NCBI RefSeq assembly: GCF_050947935.1
Contig: NZ_CP192010.1
Location: forward strand, 3,180,935-3,244,934
Length of the DNA: 64,000 nt
From: Dactylosporangium sp. CA-052675
GTDB lineage: Bacteria; Actinomycetota; Actinomycetes; Mycobacteriales; Micromonosporaceae
Reading direction: 5' to 3'
Shown: in pieces, positions 25,622 through 37,352 of the stretch
How the letters are laid out: each line of letters begins with the position of its first letter
How positions within the stretch are numbered: the first letter of the stretch is position 1
Program-made: the position numbers and the translations under genes
The notes under the pieces: model-generated
What the model was told of the DNA's origin: nothing
The model's database searches: none
What the model saw: only the letters and a program-made list of their open reading frames with translations

Positions 25622-26119
25622 ATGCTCATCCGGCCATGGCAGACGGGCGACGAGCACCTCGTGGCGGCCGCCGAGCGGCACCTGTCCGCGCGCAGCATCG
25701 ACCGGCGCTTCTGCGTCGGCAGTGGCGGGCGGCTGCCCACGTTCTACCTGCGTCATCTGGAGGGCGGCCCGCGGCCGGAGTGGGACGCGCAGGTCGCGGT
25801 GGACGACGGCGGGCGGCTGTGCGGGTGGGCCGAGTACGGCCGCCGCCCCGCCTGTTCGCCCGCCGCCGACCTGGCCGTGCTGGTCGCCGACCCGTGGCAG
25901 CGCACCGGCCTGGCCACCGCGCTCGTGCGCGCCCTGGTGCCGCGCATGGCCGCGGCCGGCGTGCGCACCGTCCAGGCCGACGTGACCGGCGCCAACGCGG
26001 CCAGCAAGGGCCTGATCCGCGCCCTTGCCGGCCCCGGCCTGCGCCCGACCTACCAGGACGGGATGGTCCACTACGCCTTCGATCTGGCGGTCGTACCGTT
26101 CGCGCCGCTGACCGTCTGA
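25622..26119 (+). CDS. GNAT-family N-acetyltransferase
   Basis: The acetyl-CoA motif is WQRTGLATALVRAL. Confidence 0.6.
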   Translation: MLIRPWQTGDEHLVAAAERHLSARSIDRRFCVGSGGRLPTFYLRHLEGGPRPEWDAQVAVDDGGRLCGWAEYGRRPACSPAADLAVLVADPWQRTGLATALVRALVPRMAAAGVRTVQADVTGANAASKGLIRALAGPGLRPTYQDGMVHYAFDLAVVPFAPLTV

Positions 26120-29100
26120 CCCGCCGCCGCCGCCCGCTCGATCGCCGCCCCGACATCGCCGACCCGGTCCGCGAGCAGCCCGACCGCGCCGACGGCCCGG
26201 CTCATCGGGTCGTCCTCGGCCCCGCCGAGCGCCTGCGCCCGGCGATGGGCCGCCTTGACCTCCGCCCACCGCGCCGCCTGCTCGGGGGTGAGGCGGCCGC
26301 GCAGCTCGGCCAGCTTGAGCAGGTTCGCCTCGGCGCCGGTGGTGAGCGTCTGGGCCTCGCCGGCGTAGTGGTCGTCGATGACCGCCTCCAGCTCGGCGTC
26401 GTTCATGACCGGCACGACCCGCTCGGCGAGCTTGTTCATGTTGCGGTACGAGCCTTGCAGCAGGAACGGCGGCTCGGTGCGCGACGCGTCGGCCTGGGCC
26501 GCGGAGGCGATGTACGCGCGGTTGGCCGCCAGCACCACCTCCTGCACCCGCAGCAGCTTGCGCAGCACGGCGAGCATCCGGTCCACCTCGACCGCCGAGT
26601 ACGGGTGGGCGAGCTGGTCCGGCCGCACGGTGCCGTCGCCGCGGGCCAGCCGCACCAGCAGCTCGACGTCGCCGCGGTCCCGCGCCGACAGCGGGGCGAG
26701 GACGGTGTTGGAGGTCAGGGCGTTCTCGATGTAGCTCAGCGCGAACACCTCGTCCCGGCCGGTCAGCACGTCGCCGAGGTTCCACACGTCGGCGCGGTTG
26801 GCCAGCATGTCGGGGATCCGGAAGCGCTGCCCCGACTCGGTGTACGGGTTGCCGGCCATGCACACGGCGAACCGCTTGCCCCGCAGGTCGTACGTGCGCG
26901 TCCGGCCGTTCCAGACGCCCTCCATGCGCCGCTGGGCGTCGCACAGGGAGATGAACTTCTGCAGCAGCTCCGGCGAGGTGTGCTGGATGTCGTCGAGGTA
27001 CAGCAGGACGTTGTTGCCCATCTCCAGCGCGAAGTTGACCTTCTCGATCTCCAGCCGGGCGGTCGCGTTCGGCGCCTGCGCCGGGTCCAGCGACGTCACG
27101 TGGTGCCCGAGCGCCGGCCCGTTCACCTTGACGAACGCGAGCCCGAGGCGGCTGGCCACGTACTCCATCAGCGTCGTCTTGCCGTAGCCGGGCGGCGAGA
27201 TGAGCAGCAGCAGACCCATCTGGTCGGCCCGCTTCGCCTCGCCCGCCGCGCCCAGCTGCCGCGCCAGGTTGTCGCCGATCAGCGGCAGGTACACCTCGTC
27301 GAGCAGCCGGTTGCGCACGAACGCGCTCATCACCTTCGGCCGGCAGTCCTCCAGCCGCAGCCGCTCCCGCTCGCGCGCGGCCAGCTCGTTGCGGCGGCGC
27401 TGGTAGGCCCGGAAGGCCGGCACGCGTTCGAGCCGGAACCGCCGGGTGCGGGCGAGCACCTCGTCCAGCCGCAGCCGCATGCGGCGGCCCTCGATGCGTG
27501 GATGGGTGCCGAGCAGCCCCTCCACGGTCGCGGTGAGCTCGGCCGCCGACTCGCGCCGCGGCAGCCCGGAACCGCAGAGCACGACGGCGGCGGCCTCCTG
27601 GAGGTCCGGGCTGTCCGCAGCGAACGAGGTGAGCCACGCCGACACGAGCTGGCGGCGGGCGGCCAGATCGCCCTCGAGGGCCCGCAGGTCCGCCGCGAGC
27701 TCGTCGGACGGCACGGCCCGCCGGAAGCGGTCCAGCAACGCCCGCGCGCCCGCGCCGGTGACGAACCCGAAATCCGGCAGGGCCAACTCCTCGAACAGGT
27801 ATGCGGCGGCCGACGAGGACGAGCCCATGGCCGACTGCAGCTCCGCGCACAGCTCGCCGATCGCGTCCGAGGGCCCGAACGCCGCCCGGGCCCGGGCCAG
27901 CGACCGCGCCCGCCGGGTCCAGGCCGCTTTCGCCTCGTCGCCGGCCCCGAAAGCCCAGAACAGCTGCGCCTCGGCGCGATCCGCCCCCGGATGGCGCAGG
28001 AGCCCGGCACCGGCGTCCAGCCGCCGCAGGACCTCGAGGATCAGCGCCGCGTCGTGGTCGTGCACACCGCGCTCGTAGCCCTCGTCGTAGCGCTCGTCAG
28101 CCAGGCGCCGCACGGCCTGCAGGGATCCGCCTTCGGGCGCGACCTCCAGGGCCAGGGCGGCCAGGTGCTCGGCGCGGTACACCTCGGGCGACTCGGAGGC
28201 GACGAGCTGCCCCCAGAACGGGCGCGCCGCGGCGATCTGCGGGTCGTCCACCGGTGCGCGGTAGTCGGTCGCGGTCACGGTGAACGCCAGCCCGTCGCCG
28301 TGCGGCACGAGCGTGAGGTCGATCGGCTGGGTGTTGACGGCGAACCGGTGGCGGCCGAGGCGGATGAGGTCGGCCGAGCCGTCGAAGAGGTCGGTCCGGT
28401 CCCGCAGCAGCCGGCCGGCCTCCAGCCGGGCCCGCTGGACCCGCCCGTCCAGCTCCTCGGCGCGGACCTGGTCGCCCAACTCGCGCAGCTCGCCGGCCAG
28501 GCGGCGGACCCGCGCGACCATCGGGTCGGTCGTGAAGTACGTGTTGACCTCGTCGGCCGACGTCATGGCGGCGACCCGGCGCCCGACGCCGGCGAGGATC
28601 CGCTCGGCGGACTCGGCGAGCCGGTCGGCGCGGCGGGCCCGCTCGTCCAGCAGCGCCTGCCGGCGGGCCGAGAATGCCTCGTAGACGTCGGTGCGCCGGT
28701 CCGCGAGCCGGGCCAGGAAGTCCTCGGACTCGCCGAAGCGGGACTCCAGGTTCTCCAGCTGCAGCATGAGCCGGCCGAGCTGCTCGTCGCAGCGCTCGGG
28801 GGTGCCGGCGGCCGCGAGCGCGCCGGTGACCGCCTGCCCGAGCAGCGCGAACTCGGCCGCGAACTCGGCCCGCCCCTCGACGGCGAGCAGCTCGCGGCGG
28901 CGGGCGTCGAGGGTGGCCCGGGCCCGGTTGACGCCGCCGAGCACCTCGCCGATGCGGGCCAGGATGCCGACCCGGACGGTGGCGTCGGCGATCTCGAGGG
29001 AGCCGACCACCTCCGTGACGATCTGCAGCGCCTCCGCCTGCGCGGCCAGCCGCTCGCCGACCGGTCCCGCGTCGGCCACGGTCCGGATCGCCTCGGCGTC

Positions 29101-30966
29101 GGCGACCAGGCGCTCGACGTCGGTGTGGTAGGCGGCGAAGGCGTCCTCGTGCCGCAGGAACCGCACCGCCCGCTGGGCCGCCGCCGTGAGCTCCGCGCCG
29201 AGCCGGGCCCGCAGCGCGGCGACCCGCTCGGTGTCGACGTAGCGCAGCTCGGCCAGCGGCACCAGCGAGCCCTGGGCGCGGCGCAGGTCGGCCAGGCGCC
29301 GTACCCAGGCGTCGGTGTCGGCGGGCGTCTCGCCCTGGGAGCGGCGGATCAGCGACTCGATCCGCTCGCCCTGCGCGCCGAGGGCGGCGGCCGCCTCCTC
29401 GGTGAGCGCCTGCACCCGCTCGAACTCGCCGAGCACCTGCTCGGCGGTGTCGCGCAGCTCGGTGAGCGGGTGGCGCAGGTCGCCGAGGTCGGCCTCGCCG
29501 AGCCAGTGGTAGTGGTCGAAGGCGCGCCGGCACGCGGCGACGATCGCCTCGAAGACCGCCGCGGACGGGGCCATCTCGGCGACCATCCGGGCCACCGACA
29601 GGGCGTCGGAGATGCCGCGGACGAGGTCGGCGTTGCCCACCCGGTCCAGCGGCCCGGTCCCGAGCGGCTGGGCGGCGGCGTACGTGTCCGACTGGTACGG
29701 CGTCTGCCAGACCTGCATGGTGTGGACCCGGGCCGGCTCCTCGGACCCGGCCCGGAAGACCACGAGGGTTCCGTCGTCGAACAGCGAGTAGCCGTGGCAC
29801 ACGATCGGGTTCTCGACCGCCTTGCGGATGACGTTGTACGGCAGCAGCAGCGACCGGCCGTCGGCCCGCGCGTGGAAGACGTAGAGCACGTCCTCGCCGT
29901 TGACGGACCGGATCACGCGCTCGAACTCGAGCTCGGCCACGTCGGTGTCGAAGGTGCGGGCGACGCCGGTGGCCAGGTAGTACCCGCCGGGGAAGATCAG
30001 GCCCTGGTCCTCCGGCAGGCGCTGGCAGCCCTGGCCGATCCCGTCGAGCCGCACGACCGCCCGGGTCCTCGTGTTGAAGACCAGAAAGCGATAGGCGTCC
30101 TCCTTGTACGGCCTGATGCGCAGCAGCACCAGGGCGCCGACGCGCGCGTAGCTCACGTCGGCGTCGGCGAGGCTCTGCAGCGGCTCGTCGACCGGCTCCC
30201 GGTAGATGCCCTCGCCGGTCTCGGTGTTGTTCTCCACCTTGACGGTCAGGTCGCCGCCGACGGTCTCGACGAACACCACGTCCTCGATGGAGATGTGAGG
30301 GTGCCGGCCCAGGACGTGCCGCTCGCGGCCGACCGGCGTCCACTCGAAGTCGTGCGACGGCGGGAACACGTGGTCGCGCTCGCCCCGGTTGTCCACATAG
30401 GACACCGTGCCGTCCGCGCCGACGGTCCAGCGCAGCACCTTGATGTCGTCGGTGCGCGGCCCGGTCTGGAAGACGGCGAGGAGCTTGCCGTCGAGGCGGC
30501 GCAGCTGCAGCAGCCGGGTGTCGCGGTAGTACTTGTAGACCTCGCCGAAGTCGCGCAGCAGCCGCGGGTCGCGCAGCAGCGCGGCGTCGTCGTCGCCGGA
30601 CGGCCGGTCGAACCGGAACGCGTCGCCGTCGCGGGCGAAGCGGTGGACCGAGAACACGTCGTCGACCGTCGTCTCCGGCTTGAGGCCGATGAAGACGTTG
30701 TAGCCGAACAGCATCAGGCCGCCGACGGACACGATGTCGCGCGGGACGCAGTTGTGCTCGGTGCGGATGCGCTCGGTGCCCAGCAGCCGCAGCTGGGCGC
30801 CCCCGAACACCTCGGTCCGCCGCGCGTTGAGGGCCTCGGCCCGGCGCGTCAGCTCGGCCGCCTGGGCGGCGAGCCGGTCGCGCAGCACCTCGTAGGTGCC
30901 GGCGTCCAGGCCCGCCGCCGGGCCCGCCTCGGTCGTGTCGCTCACCGCCGCGGTCGCTTCCGTCAC
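26071..30966 (-). CDS. 1,631-aa protein with a C-terminal AAA+ (AAA_5/MoxR/dynein-like) ATPase module; function unknown
   Basis: The 4.9-kb ORF is uninterrupted. The GTG start at 30966 overlaps the flotillin stop. Walker A is ISPPGYGKTT, Walker B is VLLYLDD, and sensor-1 is AVCMAGNPY. Confidence 0.6.
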   Translation of the reverse strand: MTEATAAVSDTTEAGPAAGLDAGTYEVLRDRLAAQAAELTRRAEALNARRTEVFGGAQLRLLGTERIRTEHNCVPRDIVSVGGLMLFGYNVFIGLKPETTVDDVFSVHRFARDGDAFRFDRPSGDDDAALLRDPRLLRDFGEVYKYYRDTRLLQLRRLDGKLLAVFQTGPRTDDIKVLRWTVGADGTVSYVDNRGERDHVFPPSHDFEWTPVGRERHVLGRHPHISIEDVVFVETVGGDLTVKVENNTETGEGIYREPVDEPLQSLADADVSYARVGALVLLRIRPYKEDAYRFLVFNTRTRAVVRLDGIGQGCQRLPEDQGLIFPGGYYLATGVARTFDTDVAELEFERVIRSVNGEDVLYVFHARADGRSLLLPYNVIRKAVENPIVCHGYSLFDDGTLVVFRAGSEEPARVHTMQVWQTPYQSDTYAAAQPLGTGPLDRVGNADLVRGISDALSVARMVAEMAPSAAVFEAIVAACRRAFDHYHWLGEADLGDLRHPLTELRDTAEQVLGEFERVQALTEEAAAALGAQGERIESLIRRSQGETPADTDAWVRRLADLRRAQGSLVPLAELRYVDTERVAALRARLGAELTAAAQRAVRFLRHEDAFAAYHTDVERLVADAEAIRTVADAGPVGERLAAQAEALQIVTEVVGSLEIADATVRVGILARIGEVLGGVNRARATLDARRRELLAVEGRAEFAAEFALLGQAVTGALAAAGTPERCDEQLGRLMLQLENLESRFGESEDFLARLADRRTDVYEAFSARRQALLDERARRADRLAESAERILAGVGRRVAAMTSADEVNTYFTTDPMVARVRRLAGELRELGDQVRAEELDGRVQRARLEAGRLLRDRTDLFDGSADLIRLGRHRFAVNTQPIDLTLVPHGDGLAFTVTATDYRAPVDDPQIAAARPFWGQLVASESPEVYRAEHLAALALEVAPEGGSLQAVRRLADERYDEGYERGVHDHDAALILEVLRRLDAGAGLLRHPGADRAEAQLFWAFGAGDEAKAAWTRRARSLARARAAFGPSDAIGELCAELQSAMGSSSSAAAYLFEELALPDFGFVTGAGARALLDRFRRAVPSDELAADLRALEGDLAARRQLVSAWLTSFAADSPDLQEAAAVVLCGSGLPRRESAAELTATVEGLLGTHPRIEGRRMRLRLDEVLARTRRFRLERVPAFRAYQRRRNELAARERERLRLEDCRPKVMSAFVRNRLLDEVYLPLIGDNLARQLGAAGEAKRADQMGLLLLISPPGYGKTTLMEYVASRLGLAFVKVNGPALGHHVTSLDPAQAPNATARLEIEKVNFALEMGNNVLLYLDDIQHTSPELLQKFISLCDAQRRMEGVWNGRTRTYDLRGKRFAVCMAGNPYTESGQRFRIPDMLANRADVWNLGDVLTGRDEVFALSYIENALTSNTVLAPLSARDRGDVELLVRLARGDGTVRPDQLAHPYSAVEVDRMLAVLRKLLRVQEVVLAANRAYIASAAQADASRTEPPFLLQGSYRNMNKLAERVVPVMNDAELEAVIDDHYAGEAQTLTTGAEANLLKLAELRGRLTPEQAARWAEVKAAHRRAQALGGAEDDPMSRAVGAVGLLADRVGDVGAAIERAAAAGQTVSGANGTTARSKA

Positions 30967-33038
30967 CGCTGGGCCGCCGCCAGCGCCGCGACCGGCTTGT
31001 CGGCGATGCCGAGCCGGTGGGCCGTGTCGAGCAGGTCGCGCAGCTTGTCCCCGTCGGCGCCGCCGCGCTGGATCTGCTGGGCCAGGAACGCCGACAGCGT
31101 CAGGTTGGACACGTCGGCGGTGCTCATCGAGCCGAGCACCCGCCCGAGGTCGCCGACCAGGTCGCCCCGGCCGTCGAGGTAGGCGGCGCCGACGCTCTGC
31201 ACGACGTCGGAGTGCTGCACGAGCCCGTCGATGCTCTTGCCGAGCGTGATCGAGCCGAGCAGCTTGTCGAAGAACACGCCGTCGCCGCCGACGATGTCGA
31301 TGTTCGCCTTCTCCAGGCCCGCGGCCAGCACGTGCGCCTGCTGCTCGGCGACCTGCCGGTGCACGTCGATGCCGGCGAGGCGGACCTCCTTCTCCATCTC
31401 CAGGCGCAGGCGGTACTCCTCGTGCCCGCGGGTCGCGGAGTCCATCGCGGCGAGCGCGGCGGCCTTCTCGGTGAGCCCCTCGGCCTCGCCCTTGAGCTTG
31501 TCGCGCAGCGCGTCGGCGAGCGCGGACGCCTTCTCCCGCTCGACCGCGGCCTCGGCCAGGCCGGCCTTCTCGATCGTCTCGGCGCTCGCGACCGCCTTCT
31601 CGCGCTCGACCGCGGCCTCCGCCCGGCCGACCTTCTCGATCGCCTCGGCGTTGCGCTCGCGCACCTGCACGTCGGCCAGACCGGCCGCGGCCGCCTCGGC
31701 CTGCACGCCCTCGGCGAGCCGGATCTTGGCCCGGGCCTCCAGCTCCGCGGTCTGCTGGCGGGCCTCGGCCAGCACCAGCTCCTCGCGGGCCCTGAACTTC
31801 GCCGCCTGCTCCGCGGCCTCGGCCGCCTTGATCCCCTTGACCAGGTTCTCCTGCGCCTCCGCCTCGGCCGCGATGATGACCGCCTGGCGGGTGCGCTCGG
31901 CCTCCTCGACCACGCGGAGCCGCTTGATGTGCTCCTCCTGTTCGGCGACGGTCCGCTCGACCGCGATGCGCTCCCGGACGACCTCGGCGATGGCCCGCTT
32001 CTCGGCCTCGACCTCCTTGTCCTTGGCGATCGTGCTCAGCTCGGTCTCCCGCTGCCGGGCGATGACCTCGAGCATGCGGTCCTTCTCGATGCGCTCCGAC
32101 TCGATCGCGATGACCCGCTCGCGGTTCTTCTCGGCCACGGCGATCTCGCGCGACTTGTTCTCGTGCTGGATGCCGACCTGCTCGTCGGTGCGGATCTCGG
32201 CGGTCTGCGACTTGAGCCGCTCCTCGGCGCGCACCCGGGCGGTCTCGGCCTCCTCCCGCGCCCGCAGGATCGCGACCTCGCGCTGCTGCTTGATCTCCGC
32301 CTCGGCCTGCCGGCGCTCCAGCTCCAGGATCGCCTCGCGGGCGTCGACGTCCTGGCGCTTGATCTCCTTCTCCTCGGTGCGCCGGTACTCGTTCGTGCGC
32401 ACGTGCTCGATCGCGGTCAGCTCGGTGATCTTCCGGATGCCCTGGGCGTCGAGGATGTTGGCGTTGTCGAGGCTGTGCAGCGGCGTCTGCTCGAGGAAGT
32501 CGATCGCGGCGTCCTCGAGGCTGTAGCCGTTGAGGTCGGTGCCGATGACCCGGACGATCTGGTCGCGGAACTCGTCGCGCTTGGTGTAGAGGTCGACGAA
32601 GTCCAGCTGCTTGCCGACGGTCTTGAGCGCCTCGGAGAACTTGGCGTTGAACAGCTCCTGCAGGGTCTCCTGGTCGCTGGCGCGCACGGTGCCGATCGCC
32701 TGGGCGACCTTGATGACGTCCTCGACGGTCTTGTTGACCCGCACGAAGAACGAGATGCGGATGTCGGCCCGGATGTTGTCGCGGCAGATCAGCCCCTCCC
32801 GGCCGGTCCGCTCGATCTCGATCGTCTTGACCGAGATGTCCATGACCTCGGCCTTGTGCAGGACCGGCAGCACGACCGCGCCGGTGAACGTGACGTCGAC
32901 CTTGCTGACCTTGGAGATGATCAGCGCCTTGCCCTGCTCGATCTTGCGGAACAGCCGGCTGATGGCGATGAGCACGCCGATCGCGGCGAGCACGACCACG
33001 CCGAGCACGACGAGGAAGCCGGTGGTGAGAACGGTCAT
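30963..33038 (-). CDS. flotillin-family protein (SPFH/band-7 domain with long EA-rich coiled coil, FloT/YqiK-like)
   Basis: An N-terminal TM helix is followed by an SPFH domain and then about 350 aa of EAEKRA-type heptads. Confidence 0.8.
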   Translation of the reverse strand: MTVLTTGFLVVLGVVVLAAIGVLIAISRLFRKIEQGKALIISKVSKVDVTFTGAVVLPVLHKAEVMDISVKTIEIERTGREGLICRDNIRADIRISFFVRVNKTVEDVIKVAQAIGTVRASDQETLQELFNAKFSEALKTVGKQLDFVDLYTKRDEFRDQIVRVIGTDLNGYSLEDAAIDFLEQTPLHSLDNANILDAQGIRKITELTAIEHVRTNEYRRTEEKEIKRQDVDAREAILELERRQAEAEIKQQREVAILRAREEAETARVRAEERLKSQTAEIRTDEQVGIQHENKSREIAVAEKNRERVIAIESERIEKDRMLEVIARQRETELSTIAKDKEVEAEKRAIAEVVRERIAVERTVAEQEEHIKRLRVVEEAERTRQAVIIAAEAEAQENLVKGIKAAEAAEQAAKFRAREELVLAEARQQTAELEARAKIRLAEGVQAEAAAAGLADVQVRERNAEAIEKVGRAEAAVEREKAVASAETIEKAGLAEAAVEREKASALADALRDKLKGEAEGLTEKAAALAAMDSATRGHEEYRLRLEMEKEVRLAGIDVHRQVAEQQAHVLAAGLEKANIDIVGGDGVFFDKLLGSITLGKSIDGLVQHSDVVQSVGAAYLDGRGDLVGDLGRVLGSMSTADVSNLTLSAFLAQQIQRGGADGDKLRDLLDTAHRLGIADKPVAALAAAQR

Positions 33039-33078
33039 AAGAGCTCCTGTGTCCGGGGGTGGGTCCAGTTGGAGCGGG

Positions 33079-33654
33079 TCAGTTCGGGGTGGATCCGTCC
33101 GGGGTGGATCCGTTCGGGGCGGGGACGACCCAGAAGAACTCGCCGTCCCGGTCGTATTCGTAGATCACCGCGGGGCTGCCCGCGGCAAAGCTGTCGGCGC
33201 CGGTCTGGCGGACCTGGACGATCGCGCTGGAGCCGTCGTCGGCGGTGACCTCGGCCTGACCGAACGACTCGGTCACGGTCCCGGTGCGAATCACGCACGA
33301 CCGCCCGACGAACGCGGTGCGGGAGTCGCCGCCCGTCGCCGGGGTGAGCCGCCGCAGCGGGATCGCGGCCAGCCGCGCCGCGAGCCACCCGGCCGCCAGC
33401 GCGACCAGCAGCACGGCCACGCGCGGCAGGGCGCCGCGGACGACGGCCGAGCCGGCCAGGCTGACGAACCAGGCGACCGGCACGAGCACCGAGAGCCCGA
33501 CCGCGATCGGCGCCCCGAGCAGCCCGGCCCCGGCGTCGAGCAGGTCGGTGTCGGCGCCCCCGAGGAGCACGACGAGCCAGTACGCGATGACGACGGCGAG
33601 CAGGACGGTGAACAGGACGGTCGGGAAGCCGAGGATCGCGTCGAGAAACTCCAT
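33079..33654 (-). CDS. NfeD-like membrane protein (YqiJ/YuaF-type, C-terminal OB-fold)
   Basis: There are three TM helices and a beta-rich C-terminus. It lies 41 bp upstream of the flotillin gene. Confidence 0.6.
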   Translation of the reverse strand: MEFLDAILGFPTVLFTVLLAVVIAYWLVVLLGGADTDLLDAGAGLLGAPIAVGLSVLVPVAWFVSLAGSAVVRGALPRVAVLLVALAAGWLAARLAAIPLRRLTPATGGDSRTAFVGRSCVIRTGTVTESFGQAEVTADDGSSAIVQVRQTGADSFAAGSPAVIYEYDRDGEFFWVVPAPNGSTPDGSTPN

Positions 33655-33814
33655 CGGCCCGTCCCGTCCCCCTCCGCTCGTGTGTCCGCATGGTGACAGG
33701 CCGCGTCAAGACCATGTTCGCGACGGCGCGCGGGCCCGCACGCCGCCGACCGGGTTCCCGGACGACGCGACGGCGCCGGCCGTGGCGCTCGGCGAACGCC
33801 GCAATTCGGGCAAT

Positions 33815-33836
33815 CTTTCGCTGTATTCAGCGAAAG
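33815..33836. promoter_or_regulatory. inverted repeat CTTTCGCTG-TATT-CAGCGAAAG in the divergent promoter region between the NfeD operon and the PA14 gene
   Basis: Perfect 9-bp arms. Confidence 0.3.
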
Positions 33837-33989
33837 TTATCGACATCTGGACGGAAGTCCCCTAGCGTGTCGTGGCATATCGACGGTCGTCGGTTCCGCC
33901 AGTGCCGACGAACGCCCCGATGACCCGTGCCCGTCTTCGGCGAGCGCGCGCGGGAGTCCGTGACCGGCTCCTACCCCTTGGAGCGTTCC

Positions 33990-36900
33990 GTGAAGCGATG
34001 GACGACCCTCTTCGCCGTGCTGCTCGCGGGCGTCGGCCTGCTGCCGGCGATCCCCGCCGCGGCCGCGGTGCCACCGCAAGAGCCCGGCGTCACCCTGCGG
34101 GTCTTCGACCTGCAGACCCCGCAGAGCTCCATCTGCGTGCTCAAGTCCGGGCAGACGCCCAACGTCGACAAGCTCATGCCGACCGTCAACTGGACCAGCG
34201 CCGCCGACTTCGGCGGGCTGGAGGACTACTTCCAGGCCCAGGTCATCGGCAACGTCAGCATCCCCAGCGCCGGCACCTACGCGTTCCGGCTCACCAGCGA
34301 CGACGGCTCCCGCCTCGCCATCGACGGCGCCAACGTCATCAGCAACGACGGCCTGCACGGCGCGACCGCGGTCGAGGGCAGCGTCGCCCTCACGGCCGGC
34401 TACCACGCGCTGCGCATCGACTTCTTCGAGCGCACCGGCGGCCAGCAGTTGACCCTCGAGTGGCGCCCGCCGGGCTCGAGCGCCTACGCGCTGGTGCCGA
34501 ACTCGGTGCTGAGCACCGATGCCGGGGTCGTGCGCGTCACCGCCCCCGGGCGCAAGGAGTGCGAGGGATCCGCCGACTCGCCCGGCGACGGGCTGCCGCT
34601 GACGTCGCTGCACCCGGGGTACACCCTGACGAACCTGCGCCCGAACGGCTTCAACCCGCAGGTCAGCGCGATGGACTGGTTCCCCGACGGGCGTCTGGCC
34701 ATCGCGACCTGGGGCGGGAGCCTCAACACCACGGGCGAGGTCTACATCCTGCGCAACGTGACGGGCGCGACCTCGCCGTCGCAGGTGCAGTACACCCGGA
34801 TCGCCTCCGGACTGAAGGAGCCCATGGGACTCAAGATCGTCGACGGCGTCATCTACGTGTCGCAGAAGCACGAGCTGACCGAGCTCACCGACACCGACGG
34901 CGACGGGCAGATCGACCGCTACCGCACGGTCGCGACCTGGCCGTTCGACGGCAACTTCCACGAGTTCGGGTTCGGGCTGCTGTACCAGGACGGGTACTTC
35001 TACCTGAACCTGTCCGTCTCCATCAACCAGGGCGGCGCGACCACCGACCCGCAGGGCTCGCCGAACCGGGGCACCAGCCTGAAGATCAACCGCTCGACCG
35101 GCGCCGTGCAGTACGTCGCCGGCGGCCTGCGCACCCCCGACGGCATCGGCTGGGGACCGGCCGGGGAGCTGTTCGTGACCGACAACCAGGGCGGCTGGCT
35201 GCCGGCGTCGAAGCTGGTGCAGATCAAGCAGGACCGCTTCTTCGGCCACTACACCAACCCCGACGGCCCGTTCGACGGCCAGCCGGTCACCCAGCCCGTG
35301 CTGTGGCTGCCGCAGAACGAGATCGCCAACTCGCCGAGCACCCCGCTGGTGCTCCACAATGGACCGTACGCCGGGCAGCTGGCGTTCGGCGACGTGACGT
35401 ACGGCGGCATCCAGCGCGCCTCGCTGGAGCAGGTGAACGGCGAGTACCAGGGCGCGGTCTTCCGCATGACGCAGGGGCTCGAGATGGGCGTGCTGCGCAT
35501 CAGCGAGGGCCCCGACGGCGCGATCTACGCGGGCGGCCTCGGCGCCGGGGGCAACTGGGGCCAGGAGGGCAAGCTCACCTACGGCCTGCAGAAGATCACC
35601 CCGAACGGCACGAACGTCTTCGACTTCAAGGCGATGCGCGTCAAGCCCGGCGGCTTCGAGCTGGAGTACACCCAGCCGGTGTCGACCGAGACGGCGGCGC
35701 AGCTGGCCTCGCGCTACACGTTCAAGCAGTGGCGGTACGTCCCCACGCCGGCCTACGGCGGCCCCAAGGTCGACGAGGAGTCGCTCCAGGTCACCTCGGC
35801 GACGCTCTCGGCCGACCGGCTGAAGGTCACCGTCCAGGTCGCGGGCCTCAAGCCGGGCCGGGTCGTCCACGTGCGCTCGCCCCGGCCGTTCACCTCGACC
35901 ACGGGCCAGTCGCTGTGGAGCACCGAGGCCTGGTACACCCTCAACGCCCTCGCCGACGGCACGCTCCCGCCGACCGGCCAGCAGGAGGCCGAGTACTCGG
36001 GCCTGAGCGGCAGCGCGGGCGTCGCGACCGACCACAGTGGATACACCGGCACCGGCTTCGTGGCCGGGTTCGGCAACGCGGGCGCCGCGGCCACGTTCAG
36101 CGTCGCCGCGCCCAGCGCCGGCGCATACACCGTGGCGCTGCGGTTCAGCAACGGGCCCAACCCCTCCGCGGGGACGAAGACCGTCAGCCTGTACCTCAAC
36201 GGCGCCAAGGTGAAGCAGCTGTCCCTCGCGGACACGGGCAACTGGGACACCTGGGCGACGGCCACCGAGACGCTCCAGCTGCGCGCGGGCGGCAACGCGA
36301 TCGCCTACCGCGTGGACAGCGGCGACATCGGCCACGTCAACCTCGACAACATCACCGTCGCGCCGGCCGGCGGCGGGGGAGCGGCGGACCACACCGGCAC
36401 CATCACCGGCATCGGCGGCAAGTGCGTCGACGTCAGCAACGCCGGCACCGCCAACGGCACGAAGATCCAGCTGTGGACCTGCAACGGCTCAACCGCGCAG
36501 AGCTGGACCCGCACCGGCGACACGCTGCGCGCGCTGGGCAAGTGCCTGGACGTCGACAACGGGGGCACCGCGAACGGGACCAAGGTGCAGCTGTACGACT
36601 GCAACGGCTCGGCCGCCCAGGTGTGGCAGGCCGGGGCGAACGGCACCCTGCGCAACCCGCAGTCCGGCAGGGTGCTCGACGCGGCCGGGGGCGCCTCCGC
36701 CGACGGCACCCAGCTGCAGATCTGGGACGCGGCCGGGGTCGCGCAGCAGAGCTGGGTCCACAATGGAGCCTCGCGGGTGACCCTGTTCGACGGCGGCAGC
36801 CTCAACGCGTTCGCCAACGCCGACGGCACCGCCCCGACCTGGCCCGTCTCCGGCGGCTCGGCGGAGGTGCTGGGCGGGGACATCCGCACGAAGCAGGCGT

Positions 36901-37352
36901 ACGGCGACTTCAAGCTCCACGTCGAGTTCTGGCTGCCGAACCTCCCGGCCGACGTCACCGGCCAGGCCCGCGCGAACTCCGGCATCTACCTGCAGGACCG
37001 CTACGAGGTCCAGGTGCTCGACACCTACGGCAAGACCTCGCTGGCGAACAACGACTGCGGCGCCATCTACCTCAAGCGGGCGCCCGACAGCAATCCGGCA
37101 ACGGCGCCGGAGACCTGGCAGACGTACGACGTGACGTTCCGCGCGGCCCGCTGGAACGGCACCACGAAGACCGAGAACGCCCGGGTCACCCTCGTGTGGA
37201 ACGGCGTCACGGTGCACAACAACGTGGCCGTCGACGGGCCGACGGGCGCGGGTGCCGCCGAGAGCCCGGCGGCGCTGCCGATCCGCCTGCAGGACCATGG
37301 CGATCCCGGCGCGAACGTGCGCTACCGCAACATCTGGATCGAGCCCGTGTGA
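33990..37352 (+). CDS. secreted multidomain carbohydrate-active protein: PA14, SGL/PQQ-type sugar-dehydrogenase beta-propeller, CBM6/35-like, ricin-B (CBM13) lectin, DUF1080 (3-keto-disaccharide hydrolase-like)
   Basis: GTG at 33990 with GGAG. There is a signal peptide. Ricin-B QxW-type repeats are present (QLWTC, QLYDC, QIWD). The DUF1080 tail has the pattern GDFKLHVEFW...NSGIYLQDRYEVQVLD...NDCGAIY. Confidence 0.7.
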   Translation: MKRWTTLFAVLLAGVGLLPAIPAAAAVPPQEPGVTLRVFDLQTPQSSICVLKSGQTPNVDKLMPTVNWTSAADFGGLEDYFQAQVIGNVSIPSAGTYAFRLTSDDGSRLAIDGANVISNDGLHGATAVEGSVALTAGYHALRIDFFERTGGQQLTLEWRPPGSSAYALVPNSVLSTDAGVVRVTAPGRKECEGSADSPGDGLPLTSLHPGYTLTNLRPNGFNPQVSAMDWFPDGRLAIATWGGSLNTTGEVYILRNVTGATSPSQVQYTRIASGLKEPMGLKIVDGVIYVSQKHELTELTDTDGDGQIDRYRTVATWPFDGNFHEFGFGLLYQDGYFYLNLSVSINQGGATTDPQGSPNRGTSLKINRSTGAVQYVAGGLRTPDGIGWGPAGELFVTDNQGGWLPASKLVQIKQDRFFGHYTNPDGPFDGQPVTQPVLWLPQNEIANSPSTPLVLHNGPYAGQLAFGDVTYGGIQRASLEQVNGEYQGAVFRMTQGLEMGVLRISEGPDGAIYAGGLGAGGNWGQEGKLTYGLQKITPNGTNVFDFKAMRVKPGGFELEYTQPVSTETAAQLASRYTFKQWRYVPTPAYGGPKVDEESLQVTSATLSADRLKVTVQVAGLKPGRVVHVRSPRPFTSTTGQSLWSTEAWYTLNALADGTLPPTGQQEAEYSGLSGSAGVATDHSGYTGTGFVAGFGNAGAAATFSVAAPSAGAYTVALRFSNGPNPSAGTKTVSLYLNGAKVKQLSLADTGNWDTWATATETLQLRAGGNAIAYRVDSGDIGHVNLDNITVAPAGGGGAADHTGTITGIGGKCVDVSNAGTANGTKIQLWTCNGSTAQSWTRTGDTLRALGKCLDVDNGGTANGTKVQLYDCNGSAAQVWQAGANGTLRNPQSGRVLDAAGGASADGTQLQIWDAAGVAQQSWVHNGASRVTLFDGGSLNAFANADGTAPTWPVSGGSAEVLGGDIRTKQAYGDFKLHVEFWLPNLPADVTGQARANSGIYLQDRYEVQVLDTYGKTSLANNDCGAIYLKRAPDSNPATAPETWQTYDVTFRAARWNGTTKTENARVTLVWNGVTVHNNVAVDGPTGAGAAESPAALPIRLQDHGDPGANVRYRNIWIEPV

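Follow-up and report, generated by a model that had tools for sequence, protein, structure and literature searches.

Does a giant ATPase encoded directly behind a flotillin gene belong to the flotillin, and if so, what would it do there? The question is raised by a 64,000-nt stretch of DNA from Dactylosporangium sp. CA-052675 (the window), in which genes for an apparently NfeD-like membrane protein (gene 1), a flotillin (gene 2) and a large soluble ATPase (gene 3) follow each other on the minus strand. A preliminary description of the locus proposed an undescribed membrane-associated system with the ATPase as constant third member; the pairing of ATPase and flotillin is borne out by the analysis reported here, the novelty of the system is not.

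The locus and its coding frames

The three co-directional ORFs, already recognized in the preliminary description, were each judged to be the true coding frame by their GC3, which is 0.96 for gene 1 (33079..33654, minus strand, 191 aa), 0.99 for gene 2 (30963..33038, minus strand, 691 aa) and 0.98 for gene 3 (26071..30966, minus strand, 1631 aa), as against 0.58–0.76 for overlapping alternative ORFs. Long spurious ORFs do arise in high-GC DNA, an 1848-aa ORF on the strand opposite to gene 3 (GC3 0.76) being one example, and the 4.9-kb ORF of gene 3 might likewise be a chance frame or a fusion of several genes through sequencing errors. Its GC3 of 0.92–1.00 in each 100-codon block, without exception, shows no trace of gene fusion or frameshift, and together with the full-length collinear homologues found in hundreds of clusters (see below) it refutes such an artefact, to which we assign practically no chance; the AF2 models of the protein are confident, too.

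Genes 1 and 2 are separated by 40 nt (not 41, as first given), and a GGAG ribosome-binding site (33044..33047, minus strand) lies 5 nt before the flotillin ATG. The flotillin stop codon (TGA, 30963-30965) overlaps a GTG (30964-30966) in the context GGTGA; this GTG is the furthest-upstream in-frame start of gene 3 and its putative initiation codon, and the GTGA overlap reported before (30963..30966, minus strand) can be read directly from the sequence. The region upstream of gene 1 (33655..33926, minus strand) is common to a divergent PA14 gene and presumably contains the promoter of the operon; a scan of it for the sigma-70 consensus yielded no promoter, which says little for an actinomycete of 72% GC. 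The preliminary description was also right in calling the flanking genes unrelated: gene 3 shares its last 49 nt with a convergent GNAT gene (25622-26119), and the divergent neighbour encodes an 1141-aa protein with PA14, CBM35, ricin and 3-keto-disaccharide-hydrolase domains.

The NfeD-like protein and the flotillin

The product of gene 1 is assigned, with moderate confidence, to the YqiJ/YuaF-type NfeD-like membrane proteins. TM-like windows are located within residues 1–100, and the predicted layout is three to four TM helices followed by a C-terminal beta/OB-like domain. At the gathering score the protein matches neither Pfam NfeD (PF01957) nor YqiJ_N or YqiJ_OB, and one of 23 orthologues has sub-threshold matches to YqiJ_N (E=0.004) and NfeD (E=0.03). 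Against a profile of the 23 orthologues, E. coli YqiJ was aligned by hhalign over 136 columns (probability 86%, E=4.9e-6); the best PDB match of the gene 1 profile, on the C-terminal domain, was B. subtilis YuaF (2k14, E=0.3).

Homology identifies the product of gene 2 as a YqiK-type flotillin/SPFH protein, the predicted layout being an N-terminal membrane anchor, the SPFH domain, a long Ala/Glu-rich coiled coil and a C-terminal tail. E. coli YqiK shares 29% identity with it over 453 aa in BLASTP (E=3e-37), covering anchor, SPFH domain and coiled coil, and hhalign aligns the two over residues 1–470 (probability 99.9%, E=2e-34). In direct searches no Pfam family was matched by the window protein itself; PF01145 is present in orthologues at 75–80% identity and in remote syntenic flotillins, and close homologues, many of them with PF01145, are named flotillin/YqiK. 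Both labels, “flotillin” and “NfeD-like”, thereby rest on comparisons more sensitive than direct Pfam search. The single hydrophobic anchor (residues 1–33, maximum KD19 of 3.23) is followed by basic residues, from which the bulk of the flotillin is predicted to be cytoplasmic.

The arrangement of genes 1 and 2, whose products are homologous to YqiJ and YqiK, is that of the two-gene modules yqiJ-yqiK of E. coli and yuaF-floT of B. subtilis; unlike the window, E. coli yqiJK has no downstream ATPase gene. The flotillins differ as well: that of the window has 691 aa, YqiK 553 aa, and the last 220 residues or so of the former (residues 470–691) are not aligned to the C-terminus of YqiK by hhalign. 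This tail, conserved among ATPase-linked flotillins, gave no Pfam match to the C-terminal flotillin domain (Flot, PF15975).

The giant ATPase

The giant protein had been held to belong to no assignable family, which proved incorrect. Profile matches place it clearly in a family defined by Pfam DUF3686, DUF7902 and a C-terminal AAA+ module: PF12458 (DUF3686) is matched with 736.4 bits (cutoff 25, E=1.2e-221) by residues 38–487 over profile positions 1–448 of 448, PF25472 (DUF7902) with 103.7 bits (cutoff 26) by residues 608–692, and Pfam AAA with 27.5 bits. The family comprises more than 6000 homologues (919 representatives at 50% clustering), usually of 1600–1900 aa, so that 1631 aa is a normal length, and gene 3 can be aligned over its whole length with 60 diverse members. 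It is catalogued, yet uncharacterised: NCBI labels it “DNA repair ATPase” in thousands of genomes, which appears to be an unsupported mislabel, and some sources call some members “MoxR-like ATPase”.

No TM segment was found in the protein by hydrophobicity windows. According to the AF2 model, residues 60–421 (29704..30789, minus strand), the core of DUF3686, would fold into a beta-propeller; the region is all-beta, with pLDDT mostly above 90, and Foldseek matches it to the propellers of paraoxonase, prolyl oligopeptidase, Ski8 and tricorn (probability 0.96–1.0). Long antiparallel helical, spectrin-like bundles are predicted for residues 445–855 (28402..29634, minus strand), which include DUF7902 (608–692), and a small beta domain (867–905) followed by further helical bundles for residues 867–1199 (27370..28368, minus strand) up to the AAA+ core; within this stretch the conservation profile is lowest at residues 1001–1150. 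Residues 1220–1580 (26227..27309, minus strand; pLDDT 92.7) are modelled as an AAA+ module with a pre-sensor-1 beta-hairpin, a lid and a C-terminal helical extension. Fold searches with these domains returned generic module matches only.

The AAA+ module contains a Walker A motif, SPPGYGKTT (27172-27198, minus strand), and a Walker B motif, LLYLDD (26989-27006, minus strand). K1263, D1325-D1326, the sensor-1 residue N1373, R1391, R1496 and R1508 are conserved in 60–61 of 61 diverse members; as judged from its sequence, the ATPase retains the complete set of motifs for nucleotide binding and hydrolysis. The Walker B motif ends in DD in place of DE, possibly an indication that hydrolysis is slow and switch-like.

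Classical AAA proteins lack a pre-sensor-1 beta-hairpin and possess an aromatic motif in pore loop 1 and a second region of homology. Gene 3 is placed outside this clade (Vps4, Cdc48/p97, FtsH) by the hairpin, which the model places at residues 1347–1360, directly before the sensor-1 strand, by the non-classical Foldseek matches of the module (RuvB, CbbQ/NorQ of the MoxR type, MCM, Skd3 and Lon, E about 1e-6) and by the lack of an aromatic-hydrophobic-Gly pore-loop motif between Walker A and B; matches to Rix7 and VCP at the sequence level cover the Walker A region only. The nearest solved AAA+ cores are those of RuvB and the MoxR-type proteins CbbQ and NorQ (target TM up to 0.59), a likeness restricted to the core of roughly 250 residues. 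About 1200 N-terminal residues of the window protein lie beyond it, and in contrast to MoxR-type systems there is neither a VWA partner gene nor a helix-2 insert evident in the model.

Conservation of the three-gene unit

Upstream DNA is included in 84 comparison loci, and in every one of them a flotillin homologue is encoded 5′ of the giant ATPase gene and in the same orientation; the loci come from at least six phyla (Actinomycetota, Myxococcota, Clostridia, Deinococcota, Pseudomonadota and Bacteroidota among the groups represented) and go down to 26% identity. This applies to 76 of 76 GTDB loci, where the flotillin gene is directly 5′, to six of six remote contexts (Vibrio, Niabella and metagenomes; 26–37% identity), and to Pseudomonas pQBR103 and a Deinococcus megaplasmid. 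In none of these loci does the giant gene occur without a flotillin gene upstream, which strongly supports the constant partnership put forward in the preliminary description. The identities of flotillin and ATPase to the window proteins co-vary over 83 loci (Pearson r=0.95); the two are inherited as a pair, and the gene order of the cassette is conserved across phyla. The NfeD-like gene is found 5′ of the flotillin gene in 71 of the 84 loci; in 13 Streptomyces loci it is missing, and flotillin and ATPase are still there. Apart from the cassette itself, clustering of the ORFs in these loci revealed no universally recurrent neighbour.

Co-translation of flotillin and ATPase had been deduced from the GTGA overlap. 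The overlap is real; as a property of the system co-translation does not hold, since only about 10 comparison loci share the −4 arrangement of the window. In about 25 loci the gap is −8 to +11 nt, in Streptomyces and remote taxa it is 40–260 nt, and tight translational coupling is lineage-specific.

Relation to a published operon

The system is not undescribed. An operon of YqiJ/YuaF, a band-7/flotillin and a protein with beta-propeller, coiled-coil and AAA+ domains was reported by Ravi et al. 2024 (mSystems 9:e00847-23, PMC11237479; preprint 2020), together with an “abbreviated operon” form that lacks PspA; the published operon agrees with the window in the order of the genes and in the domains of which each of the three proteins is built (text and Table S3). 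The example given there is the neighbourhood of Dokdonia donghaensis ANH61663.1, whose ATPase is, by its architecture and by analogy to the Bacteroidota locus L086, most likely a DUF3686 protein: L086 (CesT_Tir, PspA, ..., YqiJ-like, flotillin, ..., DUF3686) matches the full version of the operon, which has a CesT/Tir-PspA dyad, whereas the window is PspA-less like the abbreviated form. Ravi et al. proposed assembly and dynamics of sub-membrane complexes together with PspA, and chaperone-like assembly roles; the operon is treated in one paragraph, which gives no Pfam identity, structure or quantification (PMC11237479). Comparative genomics has accordingly pointed to the three-gene system before, as a probable module of membrane stress, and no member of it has been experimentally studied so far; in full-text literature searches neither DUF3686 nor “DNA repair ATPase” combined with flotillin or SPFH gave a match.

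PspA/IM30 and TelA recur beside the cassette in non-actinomycete loci. A PspA/IM30 gene adjoins it in three lineages (loci L086, L087 and L089), in the first two of which a CesT/Tir or DUF2170 gene is found alongside, and a TelA gene does so in L081, L084/85 and L091. Neither the window nor any of 80 close loci contains PspA or TelA near the cassette, and the CesT/Tir-PspA dyad (sought within the whole 64 kb of the window) and a phospholipase D gene are likewise missing from them; the link to envelope stress therefore rests on distant relatives.

What the ATPase may do

The locus represents a widespread envelope-associated operon in its stand-alone, “abbreviated” form, and the ATPase probably, if by no means certainly, works on the flotillin scaffold or on the proteins in it. 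Solved SPFH proteins form membrane-attached scaffolds or cages. The flotillin, anchored at its N-terminus, would oligomerise into such a structure with its bulk in the cytoplasm, and the NfeD-like partner would join it through the C-terminal OB-like domain. The ATPase, which most likely works on the cytoplasmic side of the membrane, acting on the flotillin assembly or together with it, could oligomerise via its AAA+ module and dock via propeller and helical arms (gene order suggests a physical interaction of the two proteins); ATP would then be used to assemble, disassemble or reshape the scaffold, or proteins in it, in membrane stress or repair. The earlier proposal of a flotillin-scaffolded mechano-enzyme remains plausible in this respect, as the giant has no TM segment, the flotillin is predicted to be mainly cytoplasmic, and the two are paired; the part concerning phage defence is unsupported (see below).

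A more specific and quite tentative version is that the giant might be a dedicated ATP-driven assembly/disassembly machine for flotillin cages that does for SPFH proteins what Vps4 does for ESCRT-III or NSF for SNAREs; the propeller and spectrin-like arms would grip the coiled-coil wall or the cap, and a non-classical, RuvB/MoxR-like AAA+ ring with Walker B DD would power opening and closing of microdomains in envelope stress. If so, flotillin scaffolds would be actively recycled in these bacteria; no SPFH protein is known to be regulated in this way. The concept of a dedicated AAA+ ATPase beside a membrane-shaping polymer is that of Vps4/CdvC with ESCRT-III/PspA-family polymers; the window ATPase differs in having no MIT domain and belonging to another AAA+ clade, and the adjacent polymer is an SPFH protein instead of ESCRT-III. 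Given the non-classical clade and the lack of an obvious aromatic pore loop, Vps4-like threading cannot simply be assumed.

The flotillin might instead be a platform that recruits the ATPase and keeps it confined, the substrates lying outside the flotillin, for instance membrane proteins that are damaged or unfolded, or polymers of PspA/IM30. HflK/C-FtsH, in which an SPFH cage encloses an AAA+ protease of the cytoplasmic membrane and is functionally tied to it, is a literature precedent by analogy, although FtsH is membrane-embedded, of the classical AAA clade and equipped with a protease domain, whereas the window ATPase is soluble, has a RuvB/MoxR-like core and no such domain, and HflK/C faces the periplasm, unlike the predicted orientation of the window flotillin. 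Beta-propellers are typical substrate- or partner-binding modules, and the PspA/IM30 genes adjoining the cassette in three lineages and the chaperone-like roles proposed by Ravi et al. (PMC11237479) fit this idea. We nevertheless consider it rather unlikely: no protease or other effector domain is part of the ATPase or encoded close to it, most loci have no linked candidate client gene, and the strict one-to-one pairing and co-variation with the flotillin are explained no less well by direct partnership.

That gene 3 really serves DNA repair, as its names in Pfam and NCBI imply, is highly improbable; apart from the name, for which no paper was found in the full-text searches, there is a general AAA+ resemblance to MCM and RuvB, the latter confined to the generic core (TM 0.2–0.37), whereas Pfam detected no DNA-binding or nuclease domain, and the linkage is to membrane-protein genes, with PspA or TelA in several lineages, repair genes never being recurrent neighbours. 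An anti-phage or abortive-infection system built from a membrane scaffold and a large NTPase is improbable, too. The gene 3 protein is large and multidomain, its family is spread over many phyla and occasionally found on megaplasmids such as pQBR103; but the PADLOC-DB 2.0 matches of the three proteins are P-loop-only (IetA, about 30 residues, E=0.002–0.007), no PHROG is matched, and Pfam reveals no nuclease, toxin or other effector domain. The gene is absent from all of 50,697 phage records; among 72,556 plasmid records it occurs in 13, most of which are chromids or mislabelled chromosomes. Around the window cassette there are carbohydrate enzymes, not defence genes, and among actinomycete chromosomes gene 3 is conserved at more than 70% identity across many genera, which suggests stable vertical inheritance.

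The operon and its reading frames

All three genes of the operon lie on the minus strand and encode, in this order, a small NfeD-like protein (191 aa; 33079–33654), a flotillin (691 aa; 30963–33038) and a large ATPase (1631 aa; 26071–30966). At the GC content of the window (~72–75%) plain ORF lists are full of spurious frames, so GC at the codon positions was used to judge them. Third-position GC (GC3) is 0.96 for the first gene, 0.99 for the second and 0.98 for the third, and remains at 0.92–1.00 in each 100-codon block of the 4.9-kb ATPase ORF; alternative ORFs overlapping the three genes, including an antisense one of 1848 aa, have a GC3 of 0.58–0.76. At 30963–30966 (GGTGA), the flotillin stop codon overlaps a GTG, the first one in frame with the large ORF, and the end of the first gene is separated by 40 nt from the flotillin ATG, 5 nt upstream of which lies a GGAG. 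The co-directional arrangement with its stop/start overlap is thereby confirmed, and an artefact explanation for the operon is extremely improbable. The antisense ORFs opposite the ATPase and flotillin genes (25636–31182, plus strand, 1848 aa; 31017–33248, plus strand, 743 aa), with a GC3 of ~0.76 and a GC1 of 0.96, were discarded as high-GC artefacts. A comparable antisense ghost ORF is present within the flotillin gene of 39 comparison loci.

The neighbouring genes are, as had been stated in the preliminary description, unrelated. The ATPase gene shares its last 49 nt with a convergent gene for a GNAT acetyltransferase (25622–26119, plus strand); the ~30 C-terminal residues of the ATPase encoded at this end are unconserved (column conservation 0.15) and modeled with low pLDDT. 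On the other side, a divergent gene (33927–37352, plus strand) encodes a secreted multidomain protein of 1141 aa with PA14, DUF7133, CBM35/CBM6, ricin-B lectin, and 3-keto-disaccharide hydrolase domains. Further neighbours encode carbohydrate-active enzymes and regulators. Carbohydrate-active genes are also plentiful in the wider window; among them are those for a GH5 cellulase (with CBM2), a GDSL lipase (with F5/8-C) and an esterase. A scan for sigma-70 promoters and intrinsic terminators was uninformative at the GC content of the window.

Family assignment of the encoded proteins

In the preliminary description the large protein could be assigned to no characterised family from sequence alone. 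It does belong to a family, with a match to the whole Pfam model DUF3686 (“ATPase involved in DNA repair”; 736 bits, residues 38–487) and further Pfam matches to DUF7902 (residues 608–692) and AAA/AAA_5 (residues 1253–1377). More than 6,000 homologs are present in a protein collection clustered at 90%, nearly all of them named “DNA repair ATPase” by NCBI, and the N-terminal 700 residues alone match 919 clusters (1.84 billion representatives searched). Full-length members consistently comprise 1600–1900 aa. The window is closest to Dactylosporangium species, whose large protein is 97% identical, and homologs more than 70% identical are found across many actinomycete genera.

Neither flotillin nor the small protein gave usable matches when scanned directly against Pfam and NCBIfam, probably due to their coiled-coil and transmembrane composition; therefore, profile and pairwise comparisons with YqiJ and YqiK of E. 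coli were used. Over 453 residues, flotillin shares 29% identity with YqiK (E = 3e-37); the profile of its family matches that protein with 99.9% probability (residues 1–470), and its close homologs are annotated as flotillin/YqiK, many of them carrying PF01145. Its only anchor lies at the N terminus, with basic residues after it, so that, by the positive-inside rule, the bulk of the protein would be located in the cytoplasm. The C-terminal 220 residues, which do not align with YqiK, might be an ATPase-docking domain, but failure to align with one YqiK sequence supports this weakly.

The small protein has three to four hydrophobic segments and a C-terminal β-rich domain. It falls below the threshold of the Pfam NfeD and YqiJ models, and a 23-sequence profile of its family matches E. 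coli YqiJ with an hhalign probability of 86% (E = 4.9e-6). Among 177,635 PDB sequences, its best match, with an E-value of only 0.3, falls on the expected domain of YuaF from Bacillus subtilis, where this protein is the NfeD partner to FloT. From the YqiJ/YuaF and YqiK matches it follows that the first two genes are an NfeD-flotillin pair of the yqiJ-yqiK type; unlike in the window, there is no ATPase gene downstream of yqiJ-yqiK in E. coli K-12.

Conservation of the flotillin-ATPase pair

One genome of each GTDB species was scanned with a degenerate pattern, which yielded 584 confirmed relatives. The 80 best loci were retained; these are mostly from actinomycetes, and also from Myxococcus and from deltaproteobacterial, Clostridia, proteobacterial and Thermoanaerobaculia metagenome-assembled genomes. 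Four of the 80 start at the ATPase gene; in each of the 76 with upstream DNA a flotillin homolog (52–80% identical) is encoded directly upstream on the same strand. As all 80 are at least 51% identical, remote representatives (26–37% identity) from Vibrio, Niabella, Flammeovirga or metagenome bacteria were examined as well, and all six contexts contain a gene for a small protein (~190–215 aa), followed by one for a flotillin homolog (~650–690 aa) and that of the ATPase. These remote flotillins are full-length homologs of the one in the window (E-values of 1e-51 to 1e-173). Two plasmids carry the triad as well: pQBR103 of Pseudomonas fluorescens and a megaplasmid of Deinococcus. The proposal that the ATPase is an obligate partner of flotillin within a conserved triad is thus well founded; the only break in the flotillin-ATPase pair among the 84 loci with upstream DNA is a gene for a β-lactamase-fold protein (439 aa) in a Niabella-type locus (L086, 6662–7981).

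When all ORFs in the loci were clustered, only the three operon families recurred universally. The identities of flotillin and ATPase to the proteins of the window co-vary (83 loci, Pearson r = 0.95), which shows that the two are co-inherited and by itself does not demonstrate their interaction. By profile HMM, a YqiJ-like gene is located upstream of that for flotillin in 71 of the 84 loci. Those without it are 13 Streptomyces loci (L039, L048, L049, L050, L054, L060, L061, L066, L067, L070, L075, L078, and L079); there, a divergent gene for a regulator of ~352 aa, whose family recurs in 29 loci, abuts the flotillin gene (region ~1–1.5 kb upstream of flotillin). The flotillin-ATPase pair, which is conserved and usually accompanied by the YqiJ-like third gene, can therefore persist without its NfeD partner and is, in this sample, stricter than the textbook pair of NfeD and flotillin.

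Translational coupling, inferred for the window from the overlapping stop and start codons, did not prove to be a conserved property: an overlap of the 4-nt type occurs in 10 loci only, in ~25 the spacing is −8 to +11 nt, and in Streptomyces and all remote taxa flotillin and ATPase genes are 40–260 nt apart. Two atypical family members, P0374 and P0304, were rejected as counter-examples lacking flotillin, because one is encoded on a contig without upstream DNA and the other on low-coverage sequence with the giant gene split. On a metagenome contig of 5× coverage (L092, 8001–15100), a family member is encoded in two products, one of 1345 aa (NfeD1b_N, DUF3686, DUF7902) and one of 982 aa (AAA); the N-terminal NfeD1b_N could reflect a fusion of NfeD with the ATPase or merely frameshift errors.

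Gene neighbourhoods and previous description

No other gene is linked to the cassette in the window or in the 80 close loci. Outside the actinomycetes, genes related to envelope stress recur beside it: in Niabella, genes for CesT/Tir and PspA/IM30 are located directly upstream, and on a metagenome contig those for DUF2170 and PspA/IM30 directly downstream. On pQBR103 of P. fluorescens SBW25 (L089, record 85112–97641) the cassette is directly preceded by a cluster encoding PspA/IM30, rhomboid, DUF2491, DUF350, DUF1190, and glutathionylspermidine-synthase-like proteins, which we take to resemble the yjfIJKLMC cluster of E. coli. An MvaT/MvaU-family gene follows the ATPase gene in this locus. Three unrelated contexts have a gene for TelA (PF05816, toxic-anion-resistance family) just downstream of the ATPase gene or near it (L081, 13001–14221; L084/L085, 13502–14608; L091, 6309–7406). 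Linkage to both PspA/IM30 and TelA is thus a repeated feature outside the actinomycetes.

The system had been presented as undescribed, which it is not: according to Ravi et al. 2024 (mSystems 9:e00847-23, PMC11237479; preprint 2020), the operon, including a 3TM YqiJ/YuaF protein, is among the neighbourhoods linked to PspA, and “related abbreviated operons” of these genes alone occur widely and could act together with a PspA encoded at another site. In Table S3 of that paper, a Dokdonia operon is given as YqiJ/YuaF, Band-7 + coiled-coil + flotillin, and β-propeller + coiled-coil + AAA-ATPase, which is the gene order and architecture of the window and is reproduced by the Bacteroidota locus L086; the Dokdonia ATPase would accordingly be a DUF3686 member. 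The link to TelA is not mentioned in their operon description. Full-text literature searches for DUF3686, and for “DNA repair ATPase” with flotillin or SPFH, returned nothing, nor did those on flotillin and AAA+ in Streptomyces, SPFH on pQBR103, or PspA-flotillin-TelA-AAA; in general SPFH reviews and surveys an associated large ATPase goes unmentioned. The operon of the window is, therefore, no discovery of a new system but another member of one so far described only computationally.

Predicted structure of the ATPase

Confident models of the ATPase were generated with AlphaFold2 from a 66-sequence alignment (pLDDT 85.8 for residues 1–1200, 92.7 for residues 1000–1631). They predict an N-terminal helix (residues 24–54), an all-β domain (60–421), very long helices spanning ~400 residues (445–855), a small β domain (867–905), helical bundles (931–1199), and an AAA+ α/β core with lid and helical C-terminal extension (~1220–1620). 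As a hydrophobic segment is absent, the protein is soluble; it has large protein-interaction modules and its set of catalytic motifs is intact, being essentially invariant across 61 diverse family members. This set includes Walker A (SPPGYGKTT), the sensor-1 residue N1373, and the arginines R1391, R1496, and R1508. Walker B (residues 1321–1326; window 26989–27006) reads hhhhDD, not the usual Asp-Glu, in 60 of the 61, which hints at an unusual, possibly slow or switch-like, chemistry of ATP hydrolysis. The structurally nearest AAA+ cores are those of RuvB, the MoxR proteins CbbQ and NorQ, MCM, Skd3, and Lon (E ~1e-6). Directly before the sensor-1 strand the model contains a β-hairpin (residues 1347–1360), which, by the usual AAA+ classification, places the ATPase outside the classical Vps4/Cdc48/FtsH clade.

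Possible functions

The database name implies a true DNA-repair ATPase, and the Pfam description says the same; we regard such a function as highly improbable, the name being a systematic mis-annotation which has spread to thousands of genomes without supporting evidence. A role in phage defence, one of those raised in the preliminary description, did not find support either: the ATPase is encoded in none of 50,697 phage records and, of 72,556 plasmid records, in only 13, which for the most part are megaplasmids, chromids or wrongly labelled chromosomes, and the operon proteins have no real match in PADLOC or PHROGs, which makes this role very unlikely.

We rather lean towards the ATPase being a flotillin-coupled, membrane-proximal component of an envelope-maintenance module. 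Flotillin would form a cytoplasm-facing, membrane-anchored oligomeric scaffold, like the SPFH proteins of solved structure; the ATPase may oligomerise and dock on this scaffold via its propeller and helical arms. Under membrane stress, ATP might drive it to build, dismantle or reshape the scaffold or the clients of the latter. The narrower idea that it specifically remodels flotillin cages is tentative and, taken alone, rather unlikely. The main rival, in which flotillin is no more than a scaffold from which the ATPase acts on other clients, in the manner of HflK/C and FtsH, is likewise doubtful, and a little more so. Vps4-like threading should not simply be assumed, given that the AAA+ clade is non-classical, that no aromatic pore loop is obvious, and that the DD of Walker B is invariant.

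How flotillin/SPFH scaffolds assemble, open, and turn over is a question in bacteria and eukaryotes alike on which the pair bears: all the loci examined, from many phyla, have flotillin genetically tied to an ATPase of 1,600 residues, which makes the latter a concrete candidate, open to testing, for an energy-dependent regulator of these scaffolds. The operon is found in tractable carriers such as Streptomyces, Vibrio, Proteus, and Deinococcus, and on the Pseudomonas plasmid pQBR103, a well-studied environmental megaplasmid which offers a ready experimental handle.
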